Shown here piece by piece: positions 8,585-44,003 of a stretch of 44,003 nt of DNA. Positions within the stretch are counted from its first letter, which is position 1. The number at the start of each line of letters is the position of its first letter. Source of the stretch: Myxococcales bacterium (lineage in GTDB: Bacteria > Myxococcota_A > UBA9042 > JABWCM01 > BTVJ01); contig BTVJ01000060.1 of the NCBI GenBank assembly GCA_045863395.1, forward strand, positions 1-44,003, written 5' to 3'. Below the pieces are notes generated by a model that saw nothing but the letters and a program-made list of their open reading frames with translations, had not been told where the DNA came from and did not search any database. Made by a program: the position numbers and the translations under genes.

Positions 8585-10708
8585 GTGGCGGCGCTCTGCG
8601 AGCCGGGGCCCTTCACGCGGCTGCTGCACGACAGCGGCCTGCTCGGGGCCCTCCGCAAGGCCGAGGAGGATGGCAGCCGCGGCGCAGTCGGACCGCGAAG
8701 GGAGGCTGCCGGCCATCCGCGGCCGCAGCGCCCGGGGCCGTACATCGGGCCTCGGGGCGGTAAGTGGGCGGATCCAGAGCACACGATCCCATGGAAGCCT
8801 TCACAGGTGGACGATGGCGTCGCACTCGATGATGACGCCGATCCGAGTGAAGAACCAGGTTGCTCAGTACTGGTGACCGGATCTGAACCGCTCGGGCCCG
8901 TGAAGGCCCACATGACGGAGGACGAGGTACGCGAGGCCATCGGCGGGTGGCACGAGGAAATCGGCGTCATTTTTGGCCAAGACGGGAAGCAGCTTGCGCG
9001 AGCTACCAGCGGATCCAAGAGGAGGATTCGGTTCGACAAGGAGTCCATGACGAAGCTGCGAGACGTGGTGAAGGCCAATGGGTCTGTGAAGTTCCTGCAC
9101 AACCATCCATCCGGCCTGATGCTCTCGGGTGGAGACGTCGCGTTTGCTGTGAAGCTGAACATCCATGCCATCGAGAGCTGCAATCGCTTTGGAGATCAGT
9201 GGTGGGTGGAGCGTCCCAGGGACGGATGGACACCGCAAGCGGCGCTCAAGGGTGCACTGTTCCAGGTGGTCCGGGAGGAGGAGCGGGTCTCCTTCAACCG
9301 CGAGCGAGGGCTTGGCGGTGTTGCCGGCAAAGACTTCGTGCAGTACACTCAAGCAGAGGTGCTGGAACTCAACCGGCGAATCTCGGAGAAGGCCAAGAGC
9401 GATGACTGTCACGGACCACCACACTTTGCCGTCCGACATGCACCTGGGGTTGGTGTGCGGCGAGGACGGCTCCATGACGCTCGACGACGAGACTCCGCTG
9501 GATCGATACCCAGAGCTGGACACGGCGGAGAAGGCACTCAAGTTTCTCGCCGAGCGCAAGGCCAAGCTCAAGGAGATGCTGTCGGAAGTGGAGGCGACCG
9601 AGGCAAAGAACGTCCGCTAGACCGGCTCCGTCGCCTCCTCAGCCGCGAGAAGGGCGACGACATCAAGAAGGCTCAAGAGTTTCCCGACCTCCCGAACCCG
9701 CTCACCTTCACCGCTCTCCTCGAGCAGCTCAGAGCGAACGGCATCCTGGCTGAGGCATCCTCCGAGGGCCAGCAGGCCGCCGAGCAGGCCCCATCTGACA
9801 CCGCCGCCGGCTCGGCGACGCGCACCCGCCAGCACATCCCCCACAGCGCCCACCCGGTGAAGCTCGGTCCCCCGCCTGAGCCCAACCGGGCCGAGCACCC
9901 CTTCGTTGGCACCATCGAGTTCCAGGGGCTCGTCGTCGACGTCGAGAACAGGAAGGGCTCCTACCGCTCGGGCAAGAACGCCGACGGCACGCCATGGCGC
10001 GTGAAGATGCTCGCCCACTACGGGGAGATCCGTGGCACCGAGGGGACTGACGGGGACCCGCTCGACGCCTACGTAGGGGACAACGCCGACAGCAGCCTCG
10101 TCGTGGTCGTGCATCAGCGCGACCCCGAGACCAGGGAGTACGACGAGGACAAGGTGATGCTGGGCTTCGACTCGGCGGACGACGCCGTGCGCCTCTACCG
10201 GCGGCAGTATGACCGGCCCGGCTTCTACGAGAGCCACACCACCATGCCCATCGGCCAGCTCTGGCGATGGGTCCGCGACGAGCGCAACCACGGCCGCAAG
10301 GTCGTGAAGAAGGGAAGGACCATGAGCGACAACGTCATCAGCCTCCAGACCTGGACGGACCAGGTGCTCCAGAAGGGCAAGACCAACCTCGAGGATGCGG
10401 TCATCGAGGCGGAGCTTCGCAACGCGCTGCGACGGCACCTGCGCTGGAGGGAGGACACGCACAGCCCGGAGGTGTGCGCTCGACACTGCGCTGACGAGGT
10501 GATCACGCAGTATGCGATGCTGGACGCGACGAAGGTGATGCTGGCGAGCTACCTCGACCGGCGGGGGCCCGACGGCCTCTACGTGCAGGCCCTGGTGAGC
10601 CATCCCGCGATGGCGGCCGAGGTCCAGTCGGCGCGGGAGGCCATGGCGGCGCGCGCGCTGCTGGAGACCCACGGGCCGCAGTCGGCCTACGCCGTCAACG
10701 GGTACTGA
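8585..10708 (+). CDS. Multidomain putative head-packaged effector: shared leader + JAB/MPN domain + InPase-like domain
   Basis: Leader CEPGPFTRLLHDSG and GPYIGPRGGKWADPE; JAB motif E...HNHPSGLMLSGGD (about 8950-9260); FQGLVVDVEN.KGS.RSG...HYGEIRGTEGTDGDPLDAYVG...DEDKVMLGF resembles the phage inorganic-pyrophosphatase-like domain (about 9900-10290). Confidence 0.8.
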   Translation: MAALCEPGPFTRLLHDSGLLGALRKAEEDGSRGAVGPRREAAGHPRPQRPGPYIGPRGGKWADPEHTIPWKPSQVDDGVALDDDADPSEEPGCSVLVTGSEPLGPVKAHMTEDEVREAIGGWHEEIGVIFGQDGKQLARATSGSKRRIRFDKESMTKLRDVVKANGSVKFLHNHPSGLMLSGGDVAFAVKLNIHAIESCNRFGDQWWVERPRDGWTPQAALKGALFQVVREEERVSFNRERGLGGVAGKDFVQYTQAEVLELNRRISEKAKSDDCHGPPHFAVRHAPGVGVRRGRLHDARRRDSAGSIPRAGHGGEGTQVSRRAQGQAQGDAVGSGGDRGKERPLDRLRRLLSREKGDDIKKAQEFPDLPNPLTFTALLEQLRANGILAEASSEGQQAAEQAPSDTAAGSATRTRQHIPHSAHPVKLGPPPEPNRAEHPFVGTIEFQGLVVDVENRKGSYRSGKNADGTPWRVKMLAHYGEIRGTEGTDGDPLDAYVGDNADSSLVVVVHQRDPETREYDEDKVMLGFDSADDAVRLYRRQYDRPGFYESHTTMPIGQLWRWVRDERNHGRKVVKKGRTMSDNVISLQTWTDQVLQKGKTNLEDAVIEAELRNALRRHLRWREDTHSPEVCARHCADEVITQYAMLDATKVMLASYLDRRGPDGLYVQALVSHPAMAAEVQSAREAMAARALLETHGPQSAYAVNGY
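9402..9620 (+). CDS. Nested 72-aa gene in the +1 frame of the 8585 ORF (candidate partner/immunity protein)
   Basis: GGAGAAGG at 9385-9392, ATG 9402, TAG 9618-9620; third positions mostly G/C in this frame but not in the enclosing frame. Confidence 0.65.
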   Translation: MTVTDHHTLPSDMHLGLVCGEDGSMTLDDETPLDRYPELDTAEKALKFLAERKAKLKEMLSEVEATEAKNVR

Positions 10709-12338: not shown

Positions 12339-12592
12339 TGCGTGTGGTCGTCCAGGAGACCTTCCCGGGGGAGCTCTCGGGGCTCTCGCCAGAGTCTCTC
12401 CGCCGCCGCCTGGACCTTGGGTTGGCGGAGGCTCGGGGGCTCGTCATGGCGAAGGCGGGCGGCGCCCACACGGGGGAGCGCATGGAGGCGTTGGACGAGC
12501 TGACTGCGCTCCTCACGAGGGGCTACGAGCGGCGACTGAAGCAGCTCCGCGAGGACGTCTTGCGCGTGGCCGGCTCCGCGAGGACCTCTTGA
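12338..12592 (+). CDS. Small head-module hypothetical protein
   Basis: TGATG coupling to the portal gene; contains VMAKA. Confidence 0.6.
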   Translation: MRVVVQETFPGELSGLSPESLRRRLDLGLAEARGLVMAKAGGAHTGERMEALDELTALLTRGYERRLKQLREDVLRVAGSARTS

Positions 12593-12597
12593 CCGCG

Positions 12598-13935
12598 ATG
12601 CCGAGTCATGTCTCGGTGGACCACTTGGTCGACGAGGTCCTGCGCGTGACCCGCGCTCACCAGGATGCGTGGATGGTCGAGGTCCTCGGGGCAGCCCAGG
12701 CGGGGCTGGGGGCGGATCGGATCGGCGAGCTGGAGGCTGGCGGATACCTCGACGGGCGACATCTGGGGGGTGTCCGTGTGCCAGGCATGAAGGCGCTCAT
12801 TGACCCTTGGGCGTTCGCGCTCCTGATGGGCATTCTCGTTGCTCGTGCAGCCCCCGACGTGGTGCCGCGGATGAGGCGCTGGTCGCTCTCCGAGTGGGTG
12901 GACGAGGTGGACCAGGAGCTGGAGCGGCGGGAGGCTCCAGAGCCGGGGGCTGGGCGCCAGTCGCCCCCGGCAGAAGGAGCCGCGCCAGGCACGACATCAC
13001 CAGCCGCGGCCCATGCACCACCCCCACGGCATGAGGAGGCGGCGCCTGTGTCGCCGGCGCAAGCACCTTCACGTCCGGGAGGAGAGGCGGTGCAGTCTCC
13101 GCTGCCCGCGATGACGCCCCCTCCACCCGTGGAGCCTCTGCTGCCCCCTCCGCCTCCTTCTCCGCCGGGTCGTGGTGTTGCGCCTCCTCGGTCGCCGGCG
13201 AAGTCTCCATCGTCTCCCCAGCCCCCGCCCGGGGGCACGGCGCCACCCTCTCCGCCGGTGGAGCCCCCTCCGCCCCCCCCGCCTCCACCTTCGGGGGGTG
13301 GTGGTGGAGTCATCCCTGCGCCACCACCTGGGCTCGCCGACACCGAGCGGGAGGCTTGGATTCAGGCTCGCACCCGCGGCGGAGAGTACTGTCGCGGGCT
13401 CGGCAACGTGGTCGACGACGAGATGCGGACGCTCGTGAGAGAGCAGTGGGACGGGTGGAACATCGTCAAGGAGGCCGACGAGGACACGCGGCGCCGTGTG
13501 GTGGGGATCATCCAGCAGAAGACCGCGCAGGCCATCGAGGAGCGGCGAGACGCTGCGTGGCTGGCCGGCGAGCTGGGGGATGCCACGGGGGACTGGGCGC
13601 GCAATTGGGCGCGCATCGCGAGGACCGAGCTGCAGGGGGCCTACGTCGAGGGGGTCGTCATCGACGCGATCCGGCAGGAAGGGGCCGGTGCCCGGATCGC
13701 TCGGATCCCGGAGCCTGGGGCCTGTGAGCACTGCCGGCGCGTGTTCCTGGACGAAGCGGGGCGCCCACGCATCTTCACAGCCGAGGACCTGGTCAACAAC
13801 GGCACCAACGTGGGGCGGAAGGCGGCTGACTGGCGCGCAACGACGTGGCCGGTGCACCCGAACTGCGCCTGTGACGTGCAGGTGGTTCCTCCCGGCATGG
13901 AGTTCGACGCCAAGGGGCGGTTGGTGAAGGCATGA
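12598..13935 (+). CDS. MuF/SPP1 gp7-like head morphogenesis protein with Pro-rich linker
   Basis: WARIARTEL, GACEHC and HPNCAC motifs; ends ...GRLVKA. Confidence 0.85.
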   Translation: MPSHVSVDHLVDEVLRVTRAHQDAWMVEVLGAAQAGLGADRIGELEAGGYLDGRHLGGVRVPGMKALIDPWAFALLMGILVARAAPDVVPRMRRWSLSEWVDEVDQELERREAPEPGAGRQSPPAEGAAPGTTSPAAAHAPPPRHEEAAPVSPAQAPSRPGGEAVQSPLPAMTPPPPVEPLLPPPPPSPPGRGVAPPRSPAKSPSSPQPPPGGTAPPSPPVEPPPPPPPPPSGGGGGVIPAPPPGLADTEREAWIQARTRGGEYCRGLGNVVDDEMRTLVREQWDGWNIVKEADEDTRRRVVGIIQQKTAQAIEERRDAAWLAGELGDATGDWARNWARIARTELQGAYVEGVVIDAIRQEGAGARIARIPEPGACEHCRRVFLDEAGRPRIFTAEDLVNNGTNVGRKAADWRATTWPVHPNCACDVQVVPPGMEFDAKGRLVKA

Positions 13936-14280: not shown

Positions 14281-15057
14281 ATGGCGAGCCTGACCCCACA
14301 CGTGATGCACCTCTGGGCCCCCTTCGACCTCGTCGAGAAGGGGGGCGAGGGCGAGGGTGCAGTCAAGCTCGGCCGGATCAAGGGCATCGCGTCGAGCGAG
14401 ACCCAGGATGCGGACGGCGAGGTCGTGGACCAGGCGGGCATCGACTGGAGCTTCTTCAAGTCCCATGGGAGAGGGGCGGTGACCCTCGAGCATCCGGTCG
14501 GCGTCTTCAACCTCATCGGCGAGGGCGTGGACGTGCGCCTCATCGACCTCGACGGCATACCGGCGACCGAGCTGGAGGCGGACCTCATCCTTACCGACCC
14601 CATCGGCCAAGCGGTCTGGGAGAAGGGGCGGGCCCTCAAGAAGGCAGGAGCCAGGACGAAGCTCGGGTTCAGCGTCGAGGGGCAGTGGCTCGAGAAGAAG
14701 GGCAACCGCATTACCAAGTCTCGGGTGACCTCCGTTGCCGTCAGTGCGGCGCCGAAGAACCCCCACACCTGGTGGGAGCCGATGGCGGCGTCCCTCCTGG
14801 CCGCGTTTCGCGGCGCTGCGGATCCTCGCGCGCTGTGGCGCGCCGAGGGCGTCGGCTACCCGGCCCAGGGGCAGGTCGTGACCGGCGGCCTCGCAGCCCT
14901 CGTCCCCCAGAGCATGCAAGGGTTCGACCCGAGGCTCCTCGAGGAGCTCACGAACGATGACCTGCTCGTGACCCGGGTGCTGCGGCAGTTGCCGCAGCTC
15001 TCCTGGTCTCAGGGCCAGAGCTTGATCGCGGACCTCCGCACCCGGATGGACGCCTGA
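14281..15057 (+). CDS. Prohead (maturation) protease
   Basis: IKGIASSETQDADGEVV, TLEH (His), GFSVEG (Ser) and VAVSAAPKNPHT motifs of HK97/herpes-fold proteases. Confidence 0.9.
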   Translation: MASLTPHVMHLWAPFDLVEKGGEGEGAVKLGRIKGIASSETQDADGEVVDQAGIDWSFFKSHGRGAVTLEHPVGVFNLIGEGVDVRLIDLDGIPATELEADLILTDPIGQAVWEKGRALKKAGARTKLGFSVEGQWLEKKGNRITKSRVTSVAVSAAPKNPHTWWEPMAASLLAAFRGAADPRALWRAEGVGYPAQGQVVTGGLAALVPQSMQGFDPRLLEELTNDDLLVTRVLRQLPQLSWSQGQSLIADLRTRMDA

Positions 15058-15071
15058 CGCGAGGGAGAGAG

Positions 15072-15773
15072 ATGAAGGCGAGCGAGCTGCGCAAGAGTCT
15101 GACGGACGCCAAGATCGCGACCGTCGAGATCGACCGGATGGTCGGGGCCCAGGTGGCCGCCGGGGCCATCGAGAACGACGAGGCTCCGGCGCCTTCGAGC
15201 CCCGTGAGCGACGAGCTGTTCAAGGCCGTGGACGCCGCGACCAACCAGCTTCGCAAGAGCATGGATGGAAGCCCCGCGGCTTCGCCGCAGCCGGCCGATG
15301 TCAGCCAGGCGCCCAAGGACGTCTCGGGCGGCGACATGAGCAAGGCCGTGGACGTCTTCGCCAAGGGAGCCGACGCCATCCTCCAGCAGGTGGGCGACCA
15401 GCACCGCACCCTCGCCGGCGGGTACCTGGCGCTGGGGCAGCTCAACCAGGCGATGGCGAAGGCGCTGACCGAGCAGGGTGAGCGCCTGGCCGCCCAGGAC
15501 GCGAAGCTCGACACCATCCTCAAGGCGCTGAGCCAGCCGGTTCCGCTTCGCTCCGTGACGGGGCTGACCACTGCGGTCCCGGCGCCTGGGGAGACGCCGA
15601 CGGGGCCCGCAAAGAGCACCCACGCAGCGGTCCTGCAGAAGGCGATGGGCGAGATGCAGAACCCTTCGACCACCATGGACCGCAGGCGTCAGCTCGCCTC
15701 GGCGGTGGCGCTGCTCGACTCCCACGGCGATCCCGCTGAGATCGCCGCCAGCTTCGGTATCACGGTCGGCTGA
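15072..15773 (+). CDS. Putative scaffolding protein
   Basis: Lies between protease and capsid, helical, with repeated ELRKS/ELFKA/QLRKS/DMSKA/VFAKG/AMAKA/TILKA/VLQKA motifs. Confidence 0.7.
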   Translation: MKASELRKSLTDAKIATVEIDRMVGAQVAAGAIENDEAPAPSSPVSDELFKAVDAATNQLRKSMDGSPAASPQPADVSQAPKDVSGGDMSKAVDVFAKGADAILQQVGDQHRTLAGGYLALGQLNQAMAKALTEQGERLAAQDAKLDTILKALSQPVPLRSVTGLTTAVPAPGETPTGPAKSTHAAVLQKAMGEMQNPSTTMDRRRQLASAVALLDSHGDPAEIAASFGITVG

Positions 15774-15829
15774 CGCAACACGTTCCGAGGGCGCGGCCGC
15801 CCATCGGCGAGGAGAAGGAGCGACACATC

Positions 15830-17290
15830 ATGGCAGACCTTGGCATCCTGTCGGACATCCAGAACGCGCAGCTCAACATCGGCGAGCTGCGCGATCTGAA
15901 CAAGGCGCTGCGGGCGAACGCGGCTGGCGACTTCCAGAAGGGCTCGGTCGGCTACCCCCAGCAGGGCGTCGGCTACACGGGCGACCTGGCGCCGCTCGTG
16001 CCGCAGTCCATCCAGGGCACGCTCGACTCGGCGACGTTCACCCTGGACCACATCGTGTTCTGGAAGCTCCTCGCGAAGAACGACGTCACCTCGACGCTGC
16101 ACGAGAGCAACCGGGTCAATCAGCACGGCATGATGGACCTCGACCCGTTCATCGCCGAGGGCGGCGTCGGGCCCCTGAGCGAGGCCGAGTACAAGCGGCG
16201 CGTCGTGCAGATCAAGTACCTGGCCGAGCACATCGAGCTGACAGACGTGGCGACCATGGTGGGCATCACGGGCCCCAACCGCTCTGCCCTGGCGCAGCGC
16301 ACGCTCAACGGCACGGCGGCCATCCTCGGCAAGCTGGAGAGGGCGCTGTTCAGCGCCGACTCCGACCTGAGCCCGCTCCACTTCGACGGCCTCTACAAGC
16401 AGATCCGCTCCGGGGCCCCCAACAACTACAAGGACAAGCGTGGCGCGCCGACCAGCCCGCAGGAGCTGATGGAGCGGCTCGCCATGACCGGCGCCAGCCC
16501 CAACTTCGGCTTCCCCACCCACGTGTTCGTCGAGCCGGCCGTCTTCTCTGCGCTCTCGCAGATCGCCACGTCCTACGGTCGGCACACGGAGATGGCCTCG
16601 GCCAACGGGGCGCAGGTGGTCTCCTTCGGGAACTCGGAGATCTACATCAACGGTCCCACGGGGCGTGTCCGCGTGCTCCCGGTCCCGCTGATGGCGCCGC
16701 CGCGGCAGCCCAACACGCAGGCGTTGGGGGCCAAGGCGCCCACGCTGAACCTGGGCATGCTCACCCCGTCGGTCGTGGCGGGCAGCAACCCCCTGTTCAC
16801 GGCGGGCGACGCCGGCGACTACTGGTACGTCCTCGTGGCCGTCGGCGACAAGGGGGTGAGCGCGCCCATCACGCTCGGAGCGGCCGCTTCCATCGGTGCC
16901 GGCGGGAAGTTCCGTCTCGACGTCGACGACTCCGGCGCGCCGACGAGCGGGGACAACTCCATCCGGTTCTACCGGCTGTTCCGGTCGCCGAAGAACGCCG
17001 CCAGCGCCAGCGCGGCATCCTGGTGCGGCTACTTCTCGCGGAACACGAGTGGCGCCGGCGGTGGCACGCGCATCGAGGACACGAACGCCGTCATCCCCAA
17101 CACGAGCCGGGTGTTCTCGGTGCAGCTCACCCCCGACGTGATGCGCTGGAACAAGCTGCTCGACTTCACGCGGCGCCCGCTGGCGCAGGTGCAGACGACC
17201 GTGCCCTTCCTCCTGCTTCTGTTCGGGGCCCTGGACGTCATGGTGCCCGAGAAGAACGACATCATGGACAACGTGTCCCTGACGCTCTGA
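15830..17290 (+). CDS. Major capsid protein (SPO1/Twort/A511-like)
   Basis: PLVPQSIQGTL..ATF...IVFWKLLAK..VTSTLHE, F.AEG, LF.ADS.LSPLHFDGLYKQI; AAGGAG RBS; canonical position. Confidence 0.9.
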   Translation: MADLGILSDIQNAQLNIGELRDLNKALRANAAGDFQKGSVGYPQQGVGYTGDLAPLVPQSIQGTLDSATFTLDHIVFWKLLAKNDVTSTLHESNRVNQHGMMDLDPFIAEGGVGPLSEAEYKRRVVQIKYLAEHIELTDVATMVGITGPNRSALAQRTLNGTAAILGKLERALFSADSDLSPLHFDGLYKQIRSGAPNNYKDKRGAPTSPQELMERLAMTGASPNFGFPTHVFVEPAVFSALSQIATSYGRHTEMASANGAQVVSFGNSEIYINGPTGRVRVLPVPLMAPPRQPNTQALGAKAPTLNLGMLTPSVVAGSNPLFTAGDAGDYWYVLVAVGDKGVSAPITLGAAASIGAGGKFRLDVDDSGAPTSGDNSIRFYRLFRSPKNAASASAASWCGYFSRNTSGAGGGTRIEDTNAVIPNTSRVFSVQLTPDVMRWNKLLDFTRRPLAQVQTTVPFLLLLFGALDVMVPEKNDIMDNVSLTL

Positions 17291-27627: not shown

Positions 27628-29454
27628 GTGTCCACGGAAGCTCACCGTACAGTCATCGAGGTCGACGCGCTCACCGACGCGGCGCATCGGAAGCTCGACA
27701 AACTCCAGGCGAAGCTCGACCGCATCATCCAGCGTGGCGGGCACATCTTGGGCCGCGGACGCGGCGGAGGTGCGGGCGGGGGCGTCGGAGCGCCGGCAGG
27801 CGGAGCAGCGTCGCCACCTGGTGGGGGAGATGGCGGCGCGGGGCCGGGCGGCGGTGGAGGCGGCGGTGGAGGCGCTGGCGCCCCCGGGGCCGGGCCCGGT
27901 GCGCCGCCGGGTGGGGCCGGGTCGAGGCCAGGTGGGGGCAACCGCGGTGCGGCGGGAGGGGGAGGAGGGCCTGGGCCTGGGCCTGGGCCTGGGCCTGGGC
28001 CGGGGCCGGGCGGAGGGCCGGGGCCGGGCGGAGGGCCGGGGCCGGGCGGAGGGCCGGGCGGAGGGCCTGGGCCTGGGCCGGGGCGGGGAGGCGGCGAACC
28101 GTCGGGTACGAGCCGGAGCCAGCGGCTTGCGATGGCGGCCATCGGTGGTGGCTCCTTGTTCGCTCACAGCGTGATCAGTGCGGGTTCGGGCATCGCACAG
28201 GCGGGCCTCGGCGAGAGCTACGCAACAAGCGTACCCGAGGCTATCAGGGCTCACGGAGCGATGCAGGCAGCGAAGATTCAAGGCGCTGGCTCCATGGTAG
28301 CGGGTGGATTGACCGCAGGAGGCATGTACCTTGGATCGATCATCCCCGGACTCGGCACCACCGCCGGAGGTGCTATCGGGTCGGTACTTGGCAATATTGC
28401 TATATCCATCGCCAATTTGTTCGGTAAAGAAAAGGAGCATATAGCAAACGTTGCGGCAAGCGCGTTCAGCCAGCGCATCCAGCTTGCGCAGCGCAAGGCC
28501 GGCATCGAGCGCCAGACCACCCTCGCGTCGCACATGGGCTTCGGCGTCGACCTGGCCACTGCGGCAAAGTACGGCTTCGGCCCCGAGGAAGCAGCGGCCC
28601 AGGGGCTCGCATACGCGCAGGCGGTCGGACACCGCGGACGCAAGGCCAACATCTACGCGCTACTGCGAACTGGCGCGTCCATGGGTGCCATCGCTGGCTA
28701 CGAGGGTCTCCGTGCGCGTGGCGCTGGGGGACGCGGAGGCAGCGTGACGACTGTGCTGGGGCTTGCCAAGAGCCAGGGGCTCTACGGCTCCAAGGCAGAC
28801 GAGTTTGTGTCGACGCTGACAGGTGCGGCACAAACGCTCGGGCAGCAGGGCATCACGTCCGACATGGGTCGGTATGAGACCGCGCTCGCCAGCATGGCTG
28901 CGAGCCCTGGGCTTTCGGAGGCCGGGCTGCGATTGCCGCGGTACGTGGCTGGACTCGCAGGGGTGGCCGGCGGAGCGCGTAAGCAGCTCACGTCCGGGTT
29001 CGCTGGTTACGCTGAGGCGAAGGTGCTCGCCCACGCGCTGGCCCAGGGCAAGTCGCTCAAGGGGGCGATGAAGGTCATAGATACAATGGATCCGCTCGCC
29101 ATCAACAAGGCGATTGGCGGTGGGATCGCGGCCGAGATGGCGTATGCAGACATGGGTGCTCCCATCAGTGAGGCAGAGGCGCTCGCGAAGGGACTCTCCG
29201 CGGTGTCTCCGCCGGACGGCGTCGCTGGAATGTACGCTCGCACCCCCAAGCTGGCCGCCCAACAAGCGGGCTACGACGCGGCGCGAATCAACGGCATGAC
29301 CCATGACAATGCCTCCGAAGCTCTTCGGCTCCAGAACATGATGGTGACCAAGCTCGACGAAATCGGTGCGACGCTCAGCGAGGGCTGGATAAAGGGCCTC
29401 CTCACGAAGATGGACGAGATAGCGGATGAGATTCGGGGCATGACGAACCCATGA
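27628..29454 (+). CDS. Tape measure protein with Gly/Pro-rich insert
   Basis: Ala/Gly-rich helical protein after the chaperones; 608 aa. Confidence 0.75.
   Translation: MSTEAHRTVIEVDALTDAAHRKLDKLQAKLDRIIQRGGHILGRGRGGGAGGGVGAPAGGAASPPGGGDGGAGPGGGGGGGGGAGAPGAGPGAPPGGAGSRPGGGNRGAAGGGGGPGPGPGPGPGPGPGGGPGPGGGPGPGGGPGGGPGPGPGRGGGEPSGTSRSQRLAMAAIGGGSLFAHSVISAGSGIAQAGLGESYATSVPEAIRAHGAMQAAKIQGAGSMVAGGLTAGGMYLGSIIPGLGTTAGGAIGSVLGNIAISIANLFGKEKEHIANVAASAFSQRIQLAQRKAGIERQTTLASHMGFGVDLATAAKYGFGPEEAAAQGLAYAQAVGHRGRKANIYALLRTGASMGAIAGYEGLRARGAGGRGGSVTTVLGLAKSQGLYGSKADEFVSTLTGAAQTLGQQGITSDMGRYETALASMAASPGLSEAGLRLPRYVAGLAGVAGGARKQLTSGFAGYAEAKVLAHALAQGKSLKGAMKVIDTMDPLAINKAIGGGIAAEMAYADMGAPISEAEALAKGLSAVSPPDGVAGMYARTPKLAAQQAGYDAARINGMTHDNASEALRLQNMMVTKLDEIGATLSEGWIKGLLTKMDEIADEIRGMTNP
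27955..28090. repeat. GGGCCT/GGGCCG hexamer and GGGCCGGGCGGA-type repeats encoding (GP)n/GPGG
   Basis: Directly visible low-complexity tandem repeats. Confidence 0.85.
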
Positions 29455-32947: not shown

Positions 32948-33610
32948 ATGATGGCGGACATGGGCACTCCGAACCACACCTGCACACCGGAGCCGGGCCC
33001 CTTCACCCGGCTCCTGCATGACAGCGGGATGCTCGATCTGCTGACCCACACGGAGGGGGCGGTCCCGCCACAGCCTGCGCAAATCGAAGGGCCCTTTGCG
33101 CGTCTCCTGCGGGAGCTCGCGTTGGAGAAGGGCAAGGGCAAGGACGACGGCAAGGGCACGCCGTACAACCGGCACCGTGGGCGGCTCCGTCGGGAGGGGG
33201 TGGTCTACGAAGGGCCGCGAGGAGGGCGGTACGCCGACCCGGAGCGCAAGATCTCGCTCAAGCGCAACGAGGGCGAGGCGAAGGAGCGTTCCGAGGCGGG
33301 GTCCAGGCCGGACCCGAAGGGGCCCCACGACTCTGTGTCCAAGCACGATCCCGAGCAAAGGCCGGACCAGTGGAAGCTCGGCTCCCACAAGTCGGTCACC
33401 ACGTGGCGCAATCAGATGGCGAAGCGAGGCTGGACGCCCAGGCAGATCGCAGAAGCCATATACATGGGTGAACGGTCTCCCGCGGCAAACAAGGTCAACA
33501 AGGGCAACTCGGCCTCTCGCTACGTGCATCCGACGACGGGAAGGCGGGTCATCGTCGATGATGTCACCCAGGAGGTGCTCCATGTCTCAGCCGAAGCATT
33601 CCAAGAGTGA
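32948..33610 (+). CDS. Shared-leader effector with C-terminal colicin E5-like ribonuclease domain
   Basis: Leader EPGPFTRLLHDSG, LALEKG and GPRGGRYADPE; C-terminus NQMAKRGWTPRQI...A.RY...VIVDDVTQEVLHVS aligns by eye with colicin E5 QMPERGWT...ATVY...VVVNDRTGEVTQIS. Confidence 0.75.
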   Translation: MMADMGTPNHTCTPEPGPFTRLLHDSGMLDLLTHTEGAVPPQPAQIEGPFARLLRELALEKGKGKDDGKGTPYNRHRGRLRREGVVYEGPRGGRYADPERKISLKRNEGEAKERSEAGSRPDPKGPHDSVSKHDPEQRPDQWKLGSHKSVTTWRNQMAKRGWTPRQIAEAIYMGERSPAANKVNKGNSASRYVHPTTGRRVIVDDVTQEVLHVSAEAFQE

Positions 33611-33887
33611 GAGCGTCATCGTGTACGTGCAGCTTCTGAACGAGGGGACCGAGGTCTATCGGCCCGCCTTGGCAGCGCCTACCAGTCCGACCACGGCTAC
33701 CATCTTGGTGCCGAAGAACTATGATCCTGAGGACGAAGAGTGGGAGTTCAAGCCAGGCACGATGGTTCGGCTCGAACTCCGGAAGTTGGGTGGCGAGAAG
33801 GACTACCACTGGAAGTACGGCTATATCTCGGGCCCCTTCGTGTGGGTCATGGTCGCCGTCGCCGATGTGAAGGAGCCGCGAGGGTGA
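33582..33887 (+). CDS. Putative immunity protein for the E5-like toxin
   Basis: AGGAGG at 33570-33575, ATG 33582, overlaps the toxin 3' end by 29 nt; acidic core VYVQLLNEGTEVYRP...YDPEDEEWEFKPG. Confidence 0.65.
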   Translation: MSQPKHSKSESVIVYVQLLNEGTEVYRPALAAPTSPTTATILVPKNYDPEDEEWEFKPGTMVRLELRKLGGEKDYHWKYGYISGPFVWVMVAVADVKEPRG

Positions 33888-38186: not shown

Positions 38187-39482
38187 GTGATCATGAAGTG
38201 CGAGCCTGGGCCCTTCACGCGGCTCCTGCACGAGAGTGGGCTGCTCGAGGCCATCCGGCGCAGGGAGATCGCTACGCTCGCGAAGGGCACGGCCGCCCCT
38301 GCCGACCCCGTAGAGGACCCGCTCGTGCGCATCGTCCGCGAGGCCATCTTGCGCGAGCTGCGGAAGGGTCGGGGTGGATCCGAGAGCGACGAAGTCGGCA
38401 GGCGTCGAGAGCACCATGGGCCCTACCTGGGACCGCGGGGTGGGAAGTACGCCGATCCGGAACTTACGCGCTCGTGGAAGGAACCTGATTCCTTGGTGCG
38501 AATGTCTGCCACGGACCAGAAGTCGTCGGACGAAGCTGGGGAGGACGATCTTCCTCCCCCCGTCTTTGCCATGCGCGGCGACATGACACCTGTTGGTCCG
38601 GTTACGGCTGACATGAACCGCACGCAAGTAGAACGGGTGATCTGCTCCAGCGATGTCGAAATCGTCGTCGCCTTCGACTCGAAGGGCAAGCAGATATTTC
38701 GGGCGACCAACAACGATCCGTGGAGCTGCGAGTTCGATACCGATTGGATCGATGCGGAAGTTGAGGATCTGGTTCACAATCACCCGACTGGGTCGTGCCC
38801 ATCGCCTGGAGACATTCTCGCACAGATCCAGGTCCACGCGAAACGACACCGTGTGGTCGTAAGTGTTGACAACGGCAACGGCAAGGTACTGACGAGGGTG
38901 TGGGTGGTCCATTGCCCGCCTGGAAGTATCGAGGATTGGATGGCGCCGCTTACGAAGGCAGAGGAACTGGCGCGCCGCACGGCGAGCGGAAGAGCTGCGG
39001 AGACCGCAGGCGTTCGCGGGGTTCGGAACCTGGAACGGTGGAAGAGAGCCCATCCTCGTGAGTGGGTCGCCACCTTGAACGTTCACATGCTTCGAAACTA
39101 TACTGCCCTGGGGCTGACGATCACGGAGGAGGCCCATGAGTCCATCAAAGAGGGACAGCCGCATCCGGCTGAGCAGCAAGTGGATTTTCCATCCCACTCC
39201 TTTGCCGACGCCGAAGCAAGCGCGCCTGGAGCGGGAAGCCTTCGAGGAGATGGCTGCCAAGCACCGCAAGTGGCTCGAGGACCGAGCCAAGGCGGCGAAG
39301 ACGGAAGCCGTGGGGAATTCGAAGGCCCCCTGACCCGCCTCGTCCGCTCCTGCTTCCGCAAGGCGACTCCGCCCGACCCCTCGGAGCTCCCGACCCCTCT
39401 CACGTTCACCGCCATCTTCGAGCAGCTCCGGGCCCAGGGCATCCTGCCCCAGGGCGGAGCCTCGTCACGCAGCGCGAGGTAG
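38187..39482 (+). CDS. Shared-leader effector with JAB/MPN domain (paralog of the 8585 N-terminal half)
   Basis: CEPGPFTRLLHESG, ELRKG, GPYLGPRGGKYADPE; E...HNHPTGSCPSPGD; C-terminal LPTPLTFTAIFEQLRAQGIL. The start may be ATG 38193. Confidence 0.8.
   Translation: MIMKCEPGPFTRLLHESGLLEAIRRREIATLAKGTAAPADPVEDPLVRIVREAILRELRKGRGGSESDEVGRRREHHGPYLGPRGGKYADPELTRSWKEPDSLVRMSATDQKSSDEAGEDDLPPPVFAMRGDMTPVGPVTADMNRTQVERVICSSDVEIVVAFDSKGKQIFRATNNDPWSCEFDTDWIDAEVEDLVHNHPTGSCPSPGDILAQIQVHAKRHRVVVSVDNGNGKVLTRVWVVHCPPGSIEDWMAPLTKAEELARRTASGRAAETAGVRGVRNLERWKRAHPREWVATLNVHMLRNYTALGLTITEEAHESIKEGQPHPAEQQVDFPSHSFADAEASAPGAGSLRGDGCQAPQVARGPSQGGEDGSRGEFEGPLTRLVRSCFRKATPPDPSELPTPLTFTAIFEQLRAQGILPQGGASSRSAR
39136..39333 (+). 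CDS. Nested 65-aa gene in the +1 frame of the 38187 ORF (candidate partner/immunity protein)
   Basis: GGAGGAGG at 39125-39132, ATG 39136, TGA 39331-39333; GC3 bias favours this frame. Confidence 0.65.
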   Translation: MSPSKRDSRIRLSSKWIFHPTPLPTPKQARLEREAFEEMAAKHRKWLEDRAKAAKTEAVGNSKAP

Positions 39483-43619: not shown

Positions 43620-43927
43620 TGGGGTGGGGCGCGGCGGTGGCGGCGATGGCGGCCGTGCTGCTGGCCATCCTCGGGAGCGCATCGGGGGGCTGCGCCGCCT
43701 CGGGCACCGCCAGCCTGGGCACGGCCTGCACGCTGAGCTGGGAGAGCGTACCGGGCGACGCCCGGGTCACCGGGACCGGCGCCTGTCGCCTCCCCCCGGG
43801 CCTCGCGGCCGTCGCGCCTCACGGCACGGAGCCGCTGCTCGAGCTGACGTGTACGGCGCGTTCGCCCTGGGCGGCGAGCTGGATGCAGGGGGCGCGGACC
43901 GCAGGGGCAGATGCGCTCGGGGACTGA
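43619..43927 (+). CDS. Putative lipoprotein (spanin-like position)
   Basis: Hydrophobic signal followed by ASGG-C lipobox-like Cys; TGATG coupling. Confidence 0.45.
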   Translation: MGWGAAVAAMAAVLLAILGSASGGCAASGTASLGTACTLSWESVPGDARVTGTGACRLPPGLAAVAPHGTEPLLELTCTARSPWAASWMQGARTAGADALGD

Positions 43928-43939
43928 CCCCCGCACGAT

Positions 43940-44003
43940 GGCAGGGTGGAGCAGCGCGGTAGCTCGCCGGGCTCATACCCCGGAGGCCGTCGGTTCGACC
44001 CCG
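43940..44003 (+). tRNA. tRNA-Met (CAT), initiator-like, 3' end cut by the window edge
   Basis: D arm TGGAGCAGCGCGGTAGCTC, anticodon arm CCGGG-CTCATAC-CCCGG with three consecutive G-C pairs, T arm GTCGG-TTCGACC-CCG. Confidence 0.85.

Follow-up and report, generated by a model that had tools for sequence, protein, structure and literature searches.

A putative inhibitor gene nested in the +1 frame behind the JAB-type effector domain of a phage polyvalent protein

Leader genes and reading frames of the contig

The window analyzed here is a 44,003-nucleotide stretch of DNA comprising an entire 44-kb contig (C60) of an 8.8-Mb genome with 71% GC content, on which Pfam and PHROG matches identify virion genes of a contractile-tailed phage (terminase, portal, head protease, major head protein, sheath and baseplate J). 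Three genes of its forward strand, A (8585 to 10708), C (32951 to 33610) and B (38187 to 39482), share an N-terminal leader (EPGPFTRLLH) followed by a GPRGG(K/R)(Y/W)ADP tag, and the window carries three cargo versions on this one leader. No counterpart of these leader and tag genes was found on the remaining contigs of the genome, and the full EPGPFTRLL leader matched no locus among viral contigs, genome contigs or two related genomes, a variant of C (P0086) being the sole further protein that bears it.

Several other features of the contig were recorded. Its left end (1 to 80) holds a 21-base head-to-tail repeat in at least three copies. Its right end (43900 to 44003) is a cut tRNA-like sequence for which ARAGORN called no tRNA; a 56-base part of it shows 86% likeness to a site on contig C35, and the final 340 bases show 80% likeness to C2:246986-247324. 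These features could point to an integration site or to a related element. The gene behind the portal (12352 to 13935) has a proline-rich middle and a Cys/His-containing C-terminal part, which we take to be reminiscent of MuF-type head proteins, and gave no Pfam or PHROG match. In a putative tape-measure gene, a Gly-Pro repeat region (27734 to 28174) yields a 146-aa +1 ORF that outscores the host frame and is probably a repeat artefact.

Gene B encodes 431 aa comprising the leader, the GPRGG tag, a JAB domain, the read-through of a nested gene and a tail. It is paralogous to A at both ends, was called as a single protein in three records, sits among baseplate and tail genes and contains only one enzymatic domain. 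The leader (38196 to 38369), delimited by alignment of the three family members, contains the EPGPFTRLL helix and two hydrophobic-x-K-G motifs (LAKG and LRKG), and by analogy would be a capsid-targeting propeptide with prohead-protease sites. The tag (38418 to 38459), GPY(I/L)GPRGGK(Y/W)ADP, recurs ahead of cargo domains in polyvalent proteins on many phage contigs. The tail (39321 to 39482) reads EGPLTRLV..FRKA..PLTFTAIFEQLRAQGIL in the host frame, shares 49% identity with the tail of A and has a GC3 of 0.92; an in-frame start codon of its own was sought in it and none was found. Word searches (237 to 755 aa and 30 to 236 aa) and viral contigs yielded no relatives of the B host protein, nor did they recover the cassettes that replace its middle in sequencing runs X7 and X15. 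Three apparent tail relatives (L069, L098 and L099) were chance matches only, and in the sequences compared no phage outside this group has so far shown the constant tail. At the other end of the gene (38187 to 38207), runs X13 and X14 (P0003) carry different first residues of B and different upstream DNA, joining the window sequence at 38208, which reads as modularity of the B locus at its 5' end as well.

The motif hydrophobic-x-K-(A/G/S) occurs four times in B (0.78 expected), five times in A (1.48 expected), eight times in the putative scaffold (0.99 expected) and four times in the protease, is absent from most tail genes and directly precedes the GPRGG tag in many other phages. Its enrichment spans the protease, the putative scaffold and the leader family (14281 to 17290, 8585 to 10708 and 38187 to 39482). 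We regard it as a candidate prohead-protease site, with targeting propeptides posited by analogy with SPN3US and T4. The SPN3US prohead-protease motif itself is given as A-X-E (PMC10052503), unlike the K motif seen here.

At the end of the JAB domain of B, the host codons T-E-E write a Shine-Dalgarno sequence, GGAGGAGG (39125 to 39132), in the same arrangement as in loci where a JAB domain is terminal (e.g. L083). The ORF that follows (39136 to 39333; ATG at 39136, TGA at 39331 to 39333) begins at the final JAB codons, lies in the +1 frame relative to the 431-aa ORF and encodes 65 aa. A previous reading of this DNA from sequence alone (hereafter the sequence-only reading) had described this Shine-Dalgarno sequence, start, length and frame right after the JAB domain, and every coordinate was confirmed.

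Across the overlap the coding signal is carried by the +1 frame in both paralogs, the host frame behaving as its shadow. In the nested frame GC3 reaches 0.80 for B and 0.86 for A, against 0.53 (B) and 0.36 (A) in the host frame, and codon log-likelihoods per codon are +0.075 against -0.257 in B and +0.33 against -0.526 in A. The 130 control windows, taken from 23 other phage genes, averaged +0.27 for frame 0 and -0.42 for +1, with the +1 frame ahead in a single window; 27.8 kb of control genes contained only two nested ORFs of at least 50 aa with a Shine-Dalgarno sequence and ATG, scoring -0.51 and -0.32. The signal of B is modest and weakest over its first 22 codons, and a 65-codon open +1 frame is not rare by stop density (about 0.22), so that it is the coding signature, not mere openness of the frame, that sets this ORF apart from chance. 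The nested ORF of B is thus very likely a real gene. Homolog searches with its product returned one 98% variant (A59V, changing TEA to TEV), which a 1812-base contig carries as a called gene, and nothing else; its best neighbor in the protein atlas scored 0.78, below use, with low recognition (1458). A viral-contig match (L182) was a chance hit within an unrelated 983-aa ORF, and predicted folding around the nested start was uninformative (z 0.06).

Paralog A, located between terminase and portal, encodes 707 aa (leader, tag, JAB, read-through, tail, InPase [PF18823] and a C-terminal part) and thus joins several conflict domains, JAB and InPase, in one chain among virion genes. Its nested +1 gene (9402 to 9620; 72 aa, or 48 aa from the ATG at 9474, which has a clearer Shine-Dalgarno sequence) is gene-called on two contigs. 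A and B share 29% identity, and the nested proteins bear no significant likeness to each other (BLASTP E 2.5), in agreement with the sequence-only reading, although the TEA that it found common to both is a chance match, the variant having TEV. That reading had also placed both stops at the same spot of the same motif: both do straddle a leucine codon and the next base in P-L-(T/D)-R-L, but the stop of A is TAG rather than TGA. In B the stop is formed where the constant tail uses ordinary CTG-A codons; its position is largely determined by the tail, and any +1 ORF entering the tail would end there. The TAG of A lies across L-D and requires a CTA codon, which accounts for 11 of 865 leucine codons in the other genes of the phage and suggests selection. 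Two points of that reading, the TEA likeness and the stop placement in B, carry less weight than it gave them.

Gene C combines the same leader and tag with a terminal Colicin_E5-type RNase (PF12106, E 1.3e-6, above cut-off) and is tailless. It is followed by a 101-aa gene (33582 to 33887), without Pfam or PHROG match, whose start lies in the +1 frame inside the last codons of C. By its gene order, C with this small gene is the ordinary, non-nested form of the toxin-partner layout.

The JAB domain and its predicted partner

Residues 132 to 316 of B (38580 to 39134) contain the E...HxH-x6/7-S-xx-D metal site of JAB/JAMM proteins (E158, H197, H199, S206 and D209), with E, HNHP and D invariant in all 20 rows of an alignment of relatives. 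The structural model reached a pLDDT of 78.5 with this alignment, compared to only 40 from the single sequence. In VIA-align comparisons the top 19 rows were all JAB/MPN proteins, led by PfJAMM1 (5ld9) with a middling Z of 8.7 (rmsd 3.8, 106 aligned residues), with RadC (Z 6.8), a DNA deaminase (5.5) and other deaminases below; Foldseek returned weak but concordant matches, its top three being JAMM1 (E 0.008 to 0.014). Atlas neighbors fell in Phage_min_cap2, Prok-JAB, RadC and DUF4329 clusters at 0.81 to 0.85, that is, below 0.9. No Pfam family, Tox-JAB-2, RadC and Prok-JAB included, exceeded its cut-off for the JAB domains of the window, and the RadC profile was touched weakly by two of the 20 relatives (E 0.037). 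On motif, alignment and model, we conclude that this region is a JAB domain. Its substrate may be an isopeptide bond or a nucleic acid; toxin JAB clades elsewhere have been argued to be nucleases rather than peptidases (PMC3482391). In the literature covered, no demonstration of toxicity was found for the present clade.

We then predicted how this domain, supplied with its 20-row alignment, would pair with the 65-aa protein in the presence of zinc. The complex score was 0.85 (0.85, 0.85 and 0.83 in separate runs), compared to 0.00 for the best of three controls. Among solved complexes 116 of 157 pass the mark applied to this score, as do 2 of 215 mismatched pairs; these figures are only roughly valid here, and according to the documentation of the tool 7 of 44 blind-picked neighbor pairs also pass. 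Contacts agreed between runs to at least 97%, with a partner pLDDT of at least 78.

The nested protein is predicted to have an extended N-terminal part followed by an amphipathic helix. On its side the predicted interface consists of residues 7 to 24 and one face of the helix (29 to 54); on the JAB side it includes all five catalytic residues (E27, H66, H68, S75 and D78 in domain numbering), and the contacts of lowest predicted error place the nested helix on the C-terminal helices of the domain. Among solved structures no relative of the JAB domain closer than RadC (E 0.02) was found, which makes a memorized like complex unlikely. In these models, the nested protein would be a partner of the JAB domain, and we consider such binding likely.

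Partner genes, cassette exchange and recurrence of the layout

The loci fetched for comparison contained 89 JAB modules, reducing to 32 distinct ones (26 terminal, five internal and one cut off). Terminal JAB proteins stop 86 to 149 residues past HNHP, a range that includes the position of the nested ATG of B (+120), and their next ORF begins within 30 bases, often with its Shine-Dalgarno sequence inside the last codons. Within 30 bases, an ORF of at most 100 aa follows 24 of 30 terminal JAB genes; for other long genes in these loci the figure is 22 of 73 (Fisher p 6.5e-6). This count used a separate redundancy filter and a lenient start rule, and it includes related, non-independent loci. These partner ORFs belong to several unrelated small families, and neither nested protein resembled any of the 26 terminal-JAB partners (best E 0.1 to 0.2, in a small set). 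A similar layout has been described for MuF toxins, in which a small ORF interpreted as an immunity gene follows the toxin gene in 89.4% of 191 genes (PMC5576092). Behind several terminal JABs (L076, L077, L079 and L090) we noted one 69- to 112-aa, Cys/His-containing partner family (mutual E 1e-9 to 1e-16), a candidate for an unnamed immunity family.

Natural variation at B was compared in four runs, X13, X14, X7 and X15, the last an RNA run whose coverage leaves out the nested ORF; gaps in the coverage of these runs carry no weight as evidence of absence. X13 and X14 bear the cassette of the window (proteins P0003 and P0002), and within the overlap these two proteins differ by two host changes silent in the nested frame and one nested change silent in the host frame, with stops in neither; these codon changes were worked by hand and are too few for statistics. 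In X7 and X15 a different sequence is joined to the tail at 39321; neither frame has a stop in the 30 bases visible, which encode a charged stretch in +1 and reach the same TGA. By hand count, the 30 bases of X7 have G/C at 9 of 10 third positions in the +1 frame versus 2 of 10 in the host frame. Furthermore, X7 departs from the window sequence right behind the GPRGG tag, at 38458, where its loose end, read by hand, continues in frame. The swappable middle is thus bounded by 38458 on the left and 39321 on the right, with both junctions seen in X7 and that at 39321 in X15, a constant carrier with an exchangeable cassette of the kind that defines polymorphic toxins. With 30 letters each on separate contigs, the simplest reading of these data suggests that cargo and nested gene are exchanged as a unit.

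Taken together, the position of the nested gene, equal to that of the small coupled gene of terminal JABs, the predicted interface over the active site and the joint exchange argue for a cognate partner. They support the proposal of the sequence-only reading that the nested proteins are cargo-specific partners, probably cognate immunity proteins, the immunity function itself being what we infer from these three lines.

At 68 viral loci, large polyvalent proteins have modules that bear the GPRGG tag, and a leader-JAB profile recovered 419 proteins at E 0.001 or better. A longer form, GPY(I/L)GPRGGKWADxxHTIPW, is repeated at the starts of cargo domains (L001-L068, L100-L104 and P0006-P0154). The tag is possibly an ejection signal; it matched no Pfam or PHROG family in the window and does not appear in the available text of PMC5512222.

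Beyond the window, six internal JAB domains came with DNA. A nested ORF follows two of them (L072 and L103), with one additional candidate of 68 aa (L163), and the expectation that homologous loci would share the nested layout was borne out to that extent, whereas L058, the first copy in L090 and L085 have internal JABs without a nested partner. With three of six lacking one, a partner is not always needed. The ORFs of L072 and L103 are homologous +1 ORFs of 65 and 63 aa with Shine-Dalgarno sequence and ATG (E 3e-10); GC3 is 0.89 to 0.91 in the linker part, and the stop again lies across CTG-A. The two linkers are 58% identical, compared to 30% just behind, and host-synonymous change falls from 33/80 to 8/35 across the overlap, a difference that is not significant (p 0.09). 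Among other cargoes, one of four internal zeta-like kinases, a label based on reading of the P-loop motif, is followed by a nested +1 ORF (L101), as is a domain pair in L030 and L059 that we take to be GGDEF-like. In L002 (1152 to 1445), a helicase-like domain is followed by a K-G site and, directly after it, by a 97-aa nested +1 gene with a strong Shine-Dalgarno sequence, over which the host frame is clearly a shadow.

A scan of 64 GPRGG ORFs (68,334 aa) gave three true +1 candidates and zero +2 candidates; rows that proved to be the ends of upstream genes were dropped, comprising three of six in this set and four of five +1 rows in 99 other ORFs. A residue-composition test flagged both linkers of the window, missed L072 and L103 and did not distinguish shadows from ordinary G/A/R/P linkers, so that the shadow-like linkers it detected behind 11 of 20 JAB modules for which there is no DNA are a hint only. 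By these comparisons the nested layout recurs and is not universal. That polyvalent proteins routinely hide +1 cognate inhibitor genes in "disordered linkers", as cassettes set between the GPRGG tag and a protease site and translated through as spacer, is a generalization for which we judge the case slightly short of even. Were it to hold, L072, L103, L101, L030 and L059, with their linkers behind JAB, zeta-like kinase or GGDEF modules, would be further cases, as would the shadow-like linkers after 11 of 20 JAB modules, and current annotation would be overlooking inhibitor genes.

Proposed mechanism and known systems

We propose that gene B carries a JAB effector and its cognate inhibitor within a head-packaged polyvalent protein, with a functional read-through to the tail, and on balance consider this full model probable. 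The nested ORF would be the inhibitor (immunity) gene for the JAB domain directly upstream, and the two would have been acquired as a single toxin-partner cassette of the MuF-JAB type, placed mid-chain. As the JAB domain is stopless, ribosomes in the host frame would pass through the inhibitor gene as a spacer to reach the conserved tail and, in A, the InPase too, whereas others would use the internal GGAGG-ATG to produce the 65-aa +1 protein. This protein is predicted to bind the JAB domain, covering the metal site with residues 7 to 24 and placing its helix against the C-terminal helices, and once bound would silence the enzyme in the producing cell. The polyprotein would enter the prohead and be cleaved at hydrophobic-x-K-(A/G/S) sites, and the JAB domain would be injected into the next cell. 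The two frames, the coding bias, the JAB fold and motif, the partner position and the exchange of the cassette can be read directly from the DNA and its translations.

Several alternatives share part of this evidence. The nested protein could be real and bind the JAB domain, yet act as a co-packaged chaperone or cofactor, or as a peptide substrate of the enzyme, instead of an antidote; the predicted pose at the active site would suit a substrate equally well, and several internal JABs do without a partner. However, JAB partners form many unrelated small families that vary with the cargo, as immunity genes do (PMC5576092), and the sister gene C has an RNase with the same coupling to a small gene, which leaves a non-antidote role rather unlikely. 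One could also regard the locus as an ordinary toxin-immunity pair in which the toxin stop was accidentally lost, making read-through and tail functionless and the nesting a by-product. The -1 shadow of a GC-rich gene is indeed often open (stop density 0.010 per codon for the genes of this phage; 0.05 to 0.19 for this protein), and the Gly/Ala/Arg/Gln-rich spacer that the host frame forms over the overlap looks junk-like. Nevertheless, A and B, at 29% identity and with unrelated nested proteins, both remain in frame into a tail that is 49% identical between them and has a GC3 of 0.92. Variant P0003 retains the open host frame, the InPase part of A has no good start of its own (its first in-frame GTG, at 9857, lacks a Shine-Dalgarno sequence), and JAB and InPase are joined in one chain in P0012. 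Given the chance of the host frame staying open beneath the nested protein (0.05 to 0.19 in B, 0.14 in A), its in-frame rejoining of that tail and the lack of a start in the tail of B, we conclude that the host frame has been kept, and we think accidental stop loss an unlikely account.

The remaining alternatives concern the +1 frame itself. Programmed frameshifting could give access to it without a start of its own, producing a JAB-inhibitor fusion as an inactive form; phages employ programmed frameshifts in virion genes, and the two frames meet exactly at the end of the JAB domain. Against this stand the strong Shine-Dalgarno sequence and ATG, written as in terminal JAB loci that have a separate partner, and the lack of any slippery run, by eye, common to A and B at the junction; we hold frameshifting to be very improbable. 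Least credible to us is a chance ORF within a low-complexity linker. It would accord with the frequency of stop-free +1 stretches of this length (about 0.22), the lack of homologs and the low atlas recognition (1458), but is at odds with the +1 codon bias in both paralogs and the swapped variant, with the partner position and with the complex score of 0.85 versus 0.00. We therefore retain the model of a JAB effector with a nested cognate inhibitor. If it is correct, apparent low-complexity linkers of polyvalent proteins would be shadows of missed genes, the natural inhibitor would offer a handle on an uncharacterized JAB clade, and the locus would be a natural entanglement of toxin and antitoxin genes with exchangeable parts.

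Two known arrangements place one gene inside another. The lambda Rz/Rz1 embedded spanins include a fully +1-nested phage gene whose product binds that of the host gene and serves lysis; there, the host frame encodes a working domain over the overlap, whereas in B it would be a passive spacer. Rpn gene-within-gene toxin-antitoxin systems, reportedly also the subject of a preprint by Zhong et al., similarly produce an antitoxin from an internal start in the toxin gene, which specifically binds and inhibits the toxin (PMC10400984). RpnS, however, is in frame, corresponds to the toxin's own C-terminal part and belongs to a bacterial defense gene (PMC10400984); in contrast, the nested ORF of B lies in +1, shares no sequence with the host protein and resides in a phage virion gene.

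MuF polymorphic toxins (Jamet et al. 2017, PMC5576092) resemble the present genes in their head-associated phage carrier, variable effector and small ORF as immunity gene, and the JAB domain described here is kin to the terminal JABs of MuF-type layouts. They differ in that the N-terminal part of A, B and C showed no MuF domain in Pfam or PHROG, the carrier being a short leader with the GPRGG tag. Of the three genes, just C has the MuF layout of a C-terminal toxin followed by a small ORF; A and B place the small ORF equivalently, but their host frame runs on. Polyvalent proteins (Iyer et al. 2017, PMC5512222) are likewise multi-domain, virion-packaged conflict proteins with InPase (PF18823) and JAB/RadC-type parts, of which P1 DarA and DdrB are processed before packaging; in its available text neither a nested partner gene nor a GPRGG-type tag was found. 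Toxin JABs described in 2012 (PMC3482391) share the JAB fold with E, HxH, S and D, act as toxins and have immunity genes, but their partners (Imm65 and Imm-NTF2-2) lie downstream, and the present domain has no Pfam match to those families.

In the openly accessible literature searched, we found no report of a virion polyprotein in which an internal effector domain is followed by an inhibitor gene nested out of frame. Toxin-like domains placed mid-chain leave no room for a downstream immunity gene, and protection of the producer is not addressed in the literature covered; an out-of-frame nested inhibitor would solve this problem for mid-chain effectors. Each part of such an arrangement has precedent, in MuF pairs, in polyvalent proteins, in RpnS and in Rz/Rz1.
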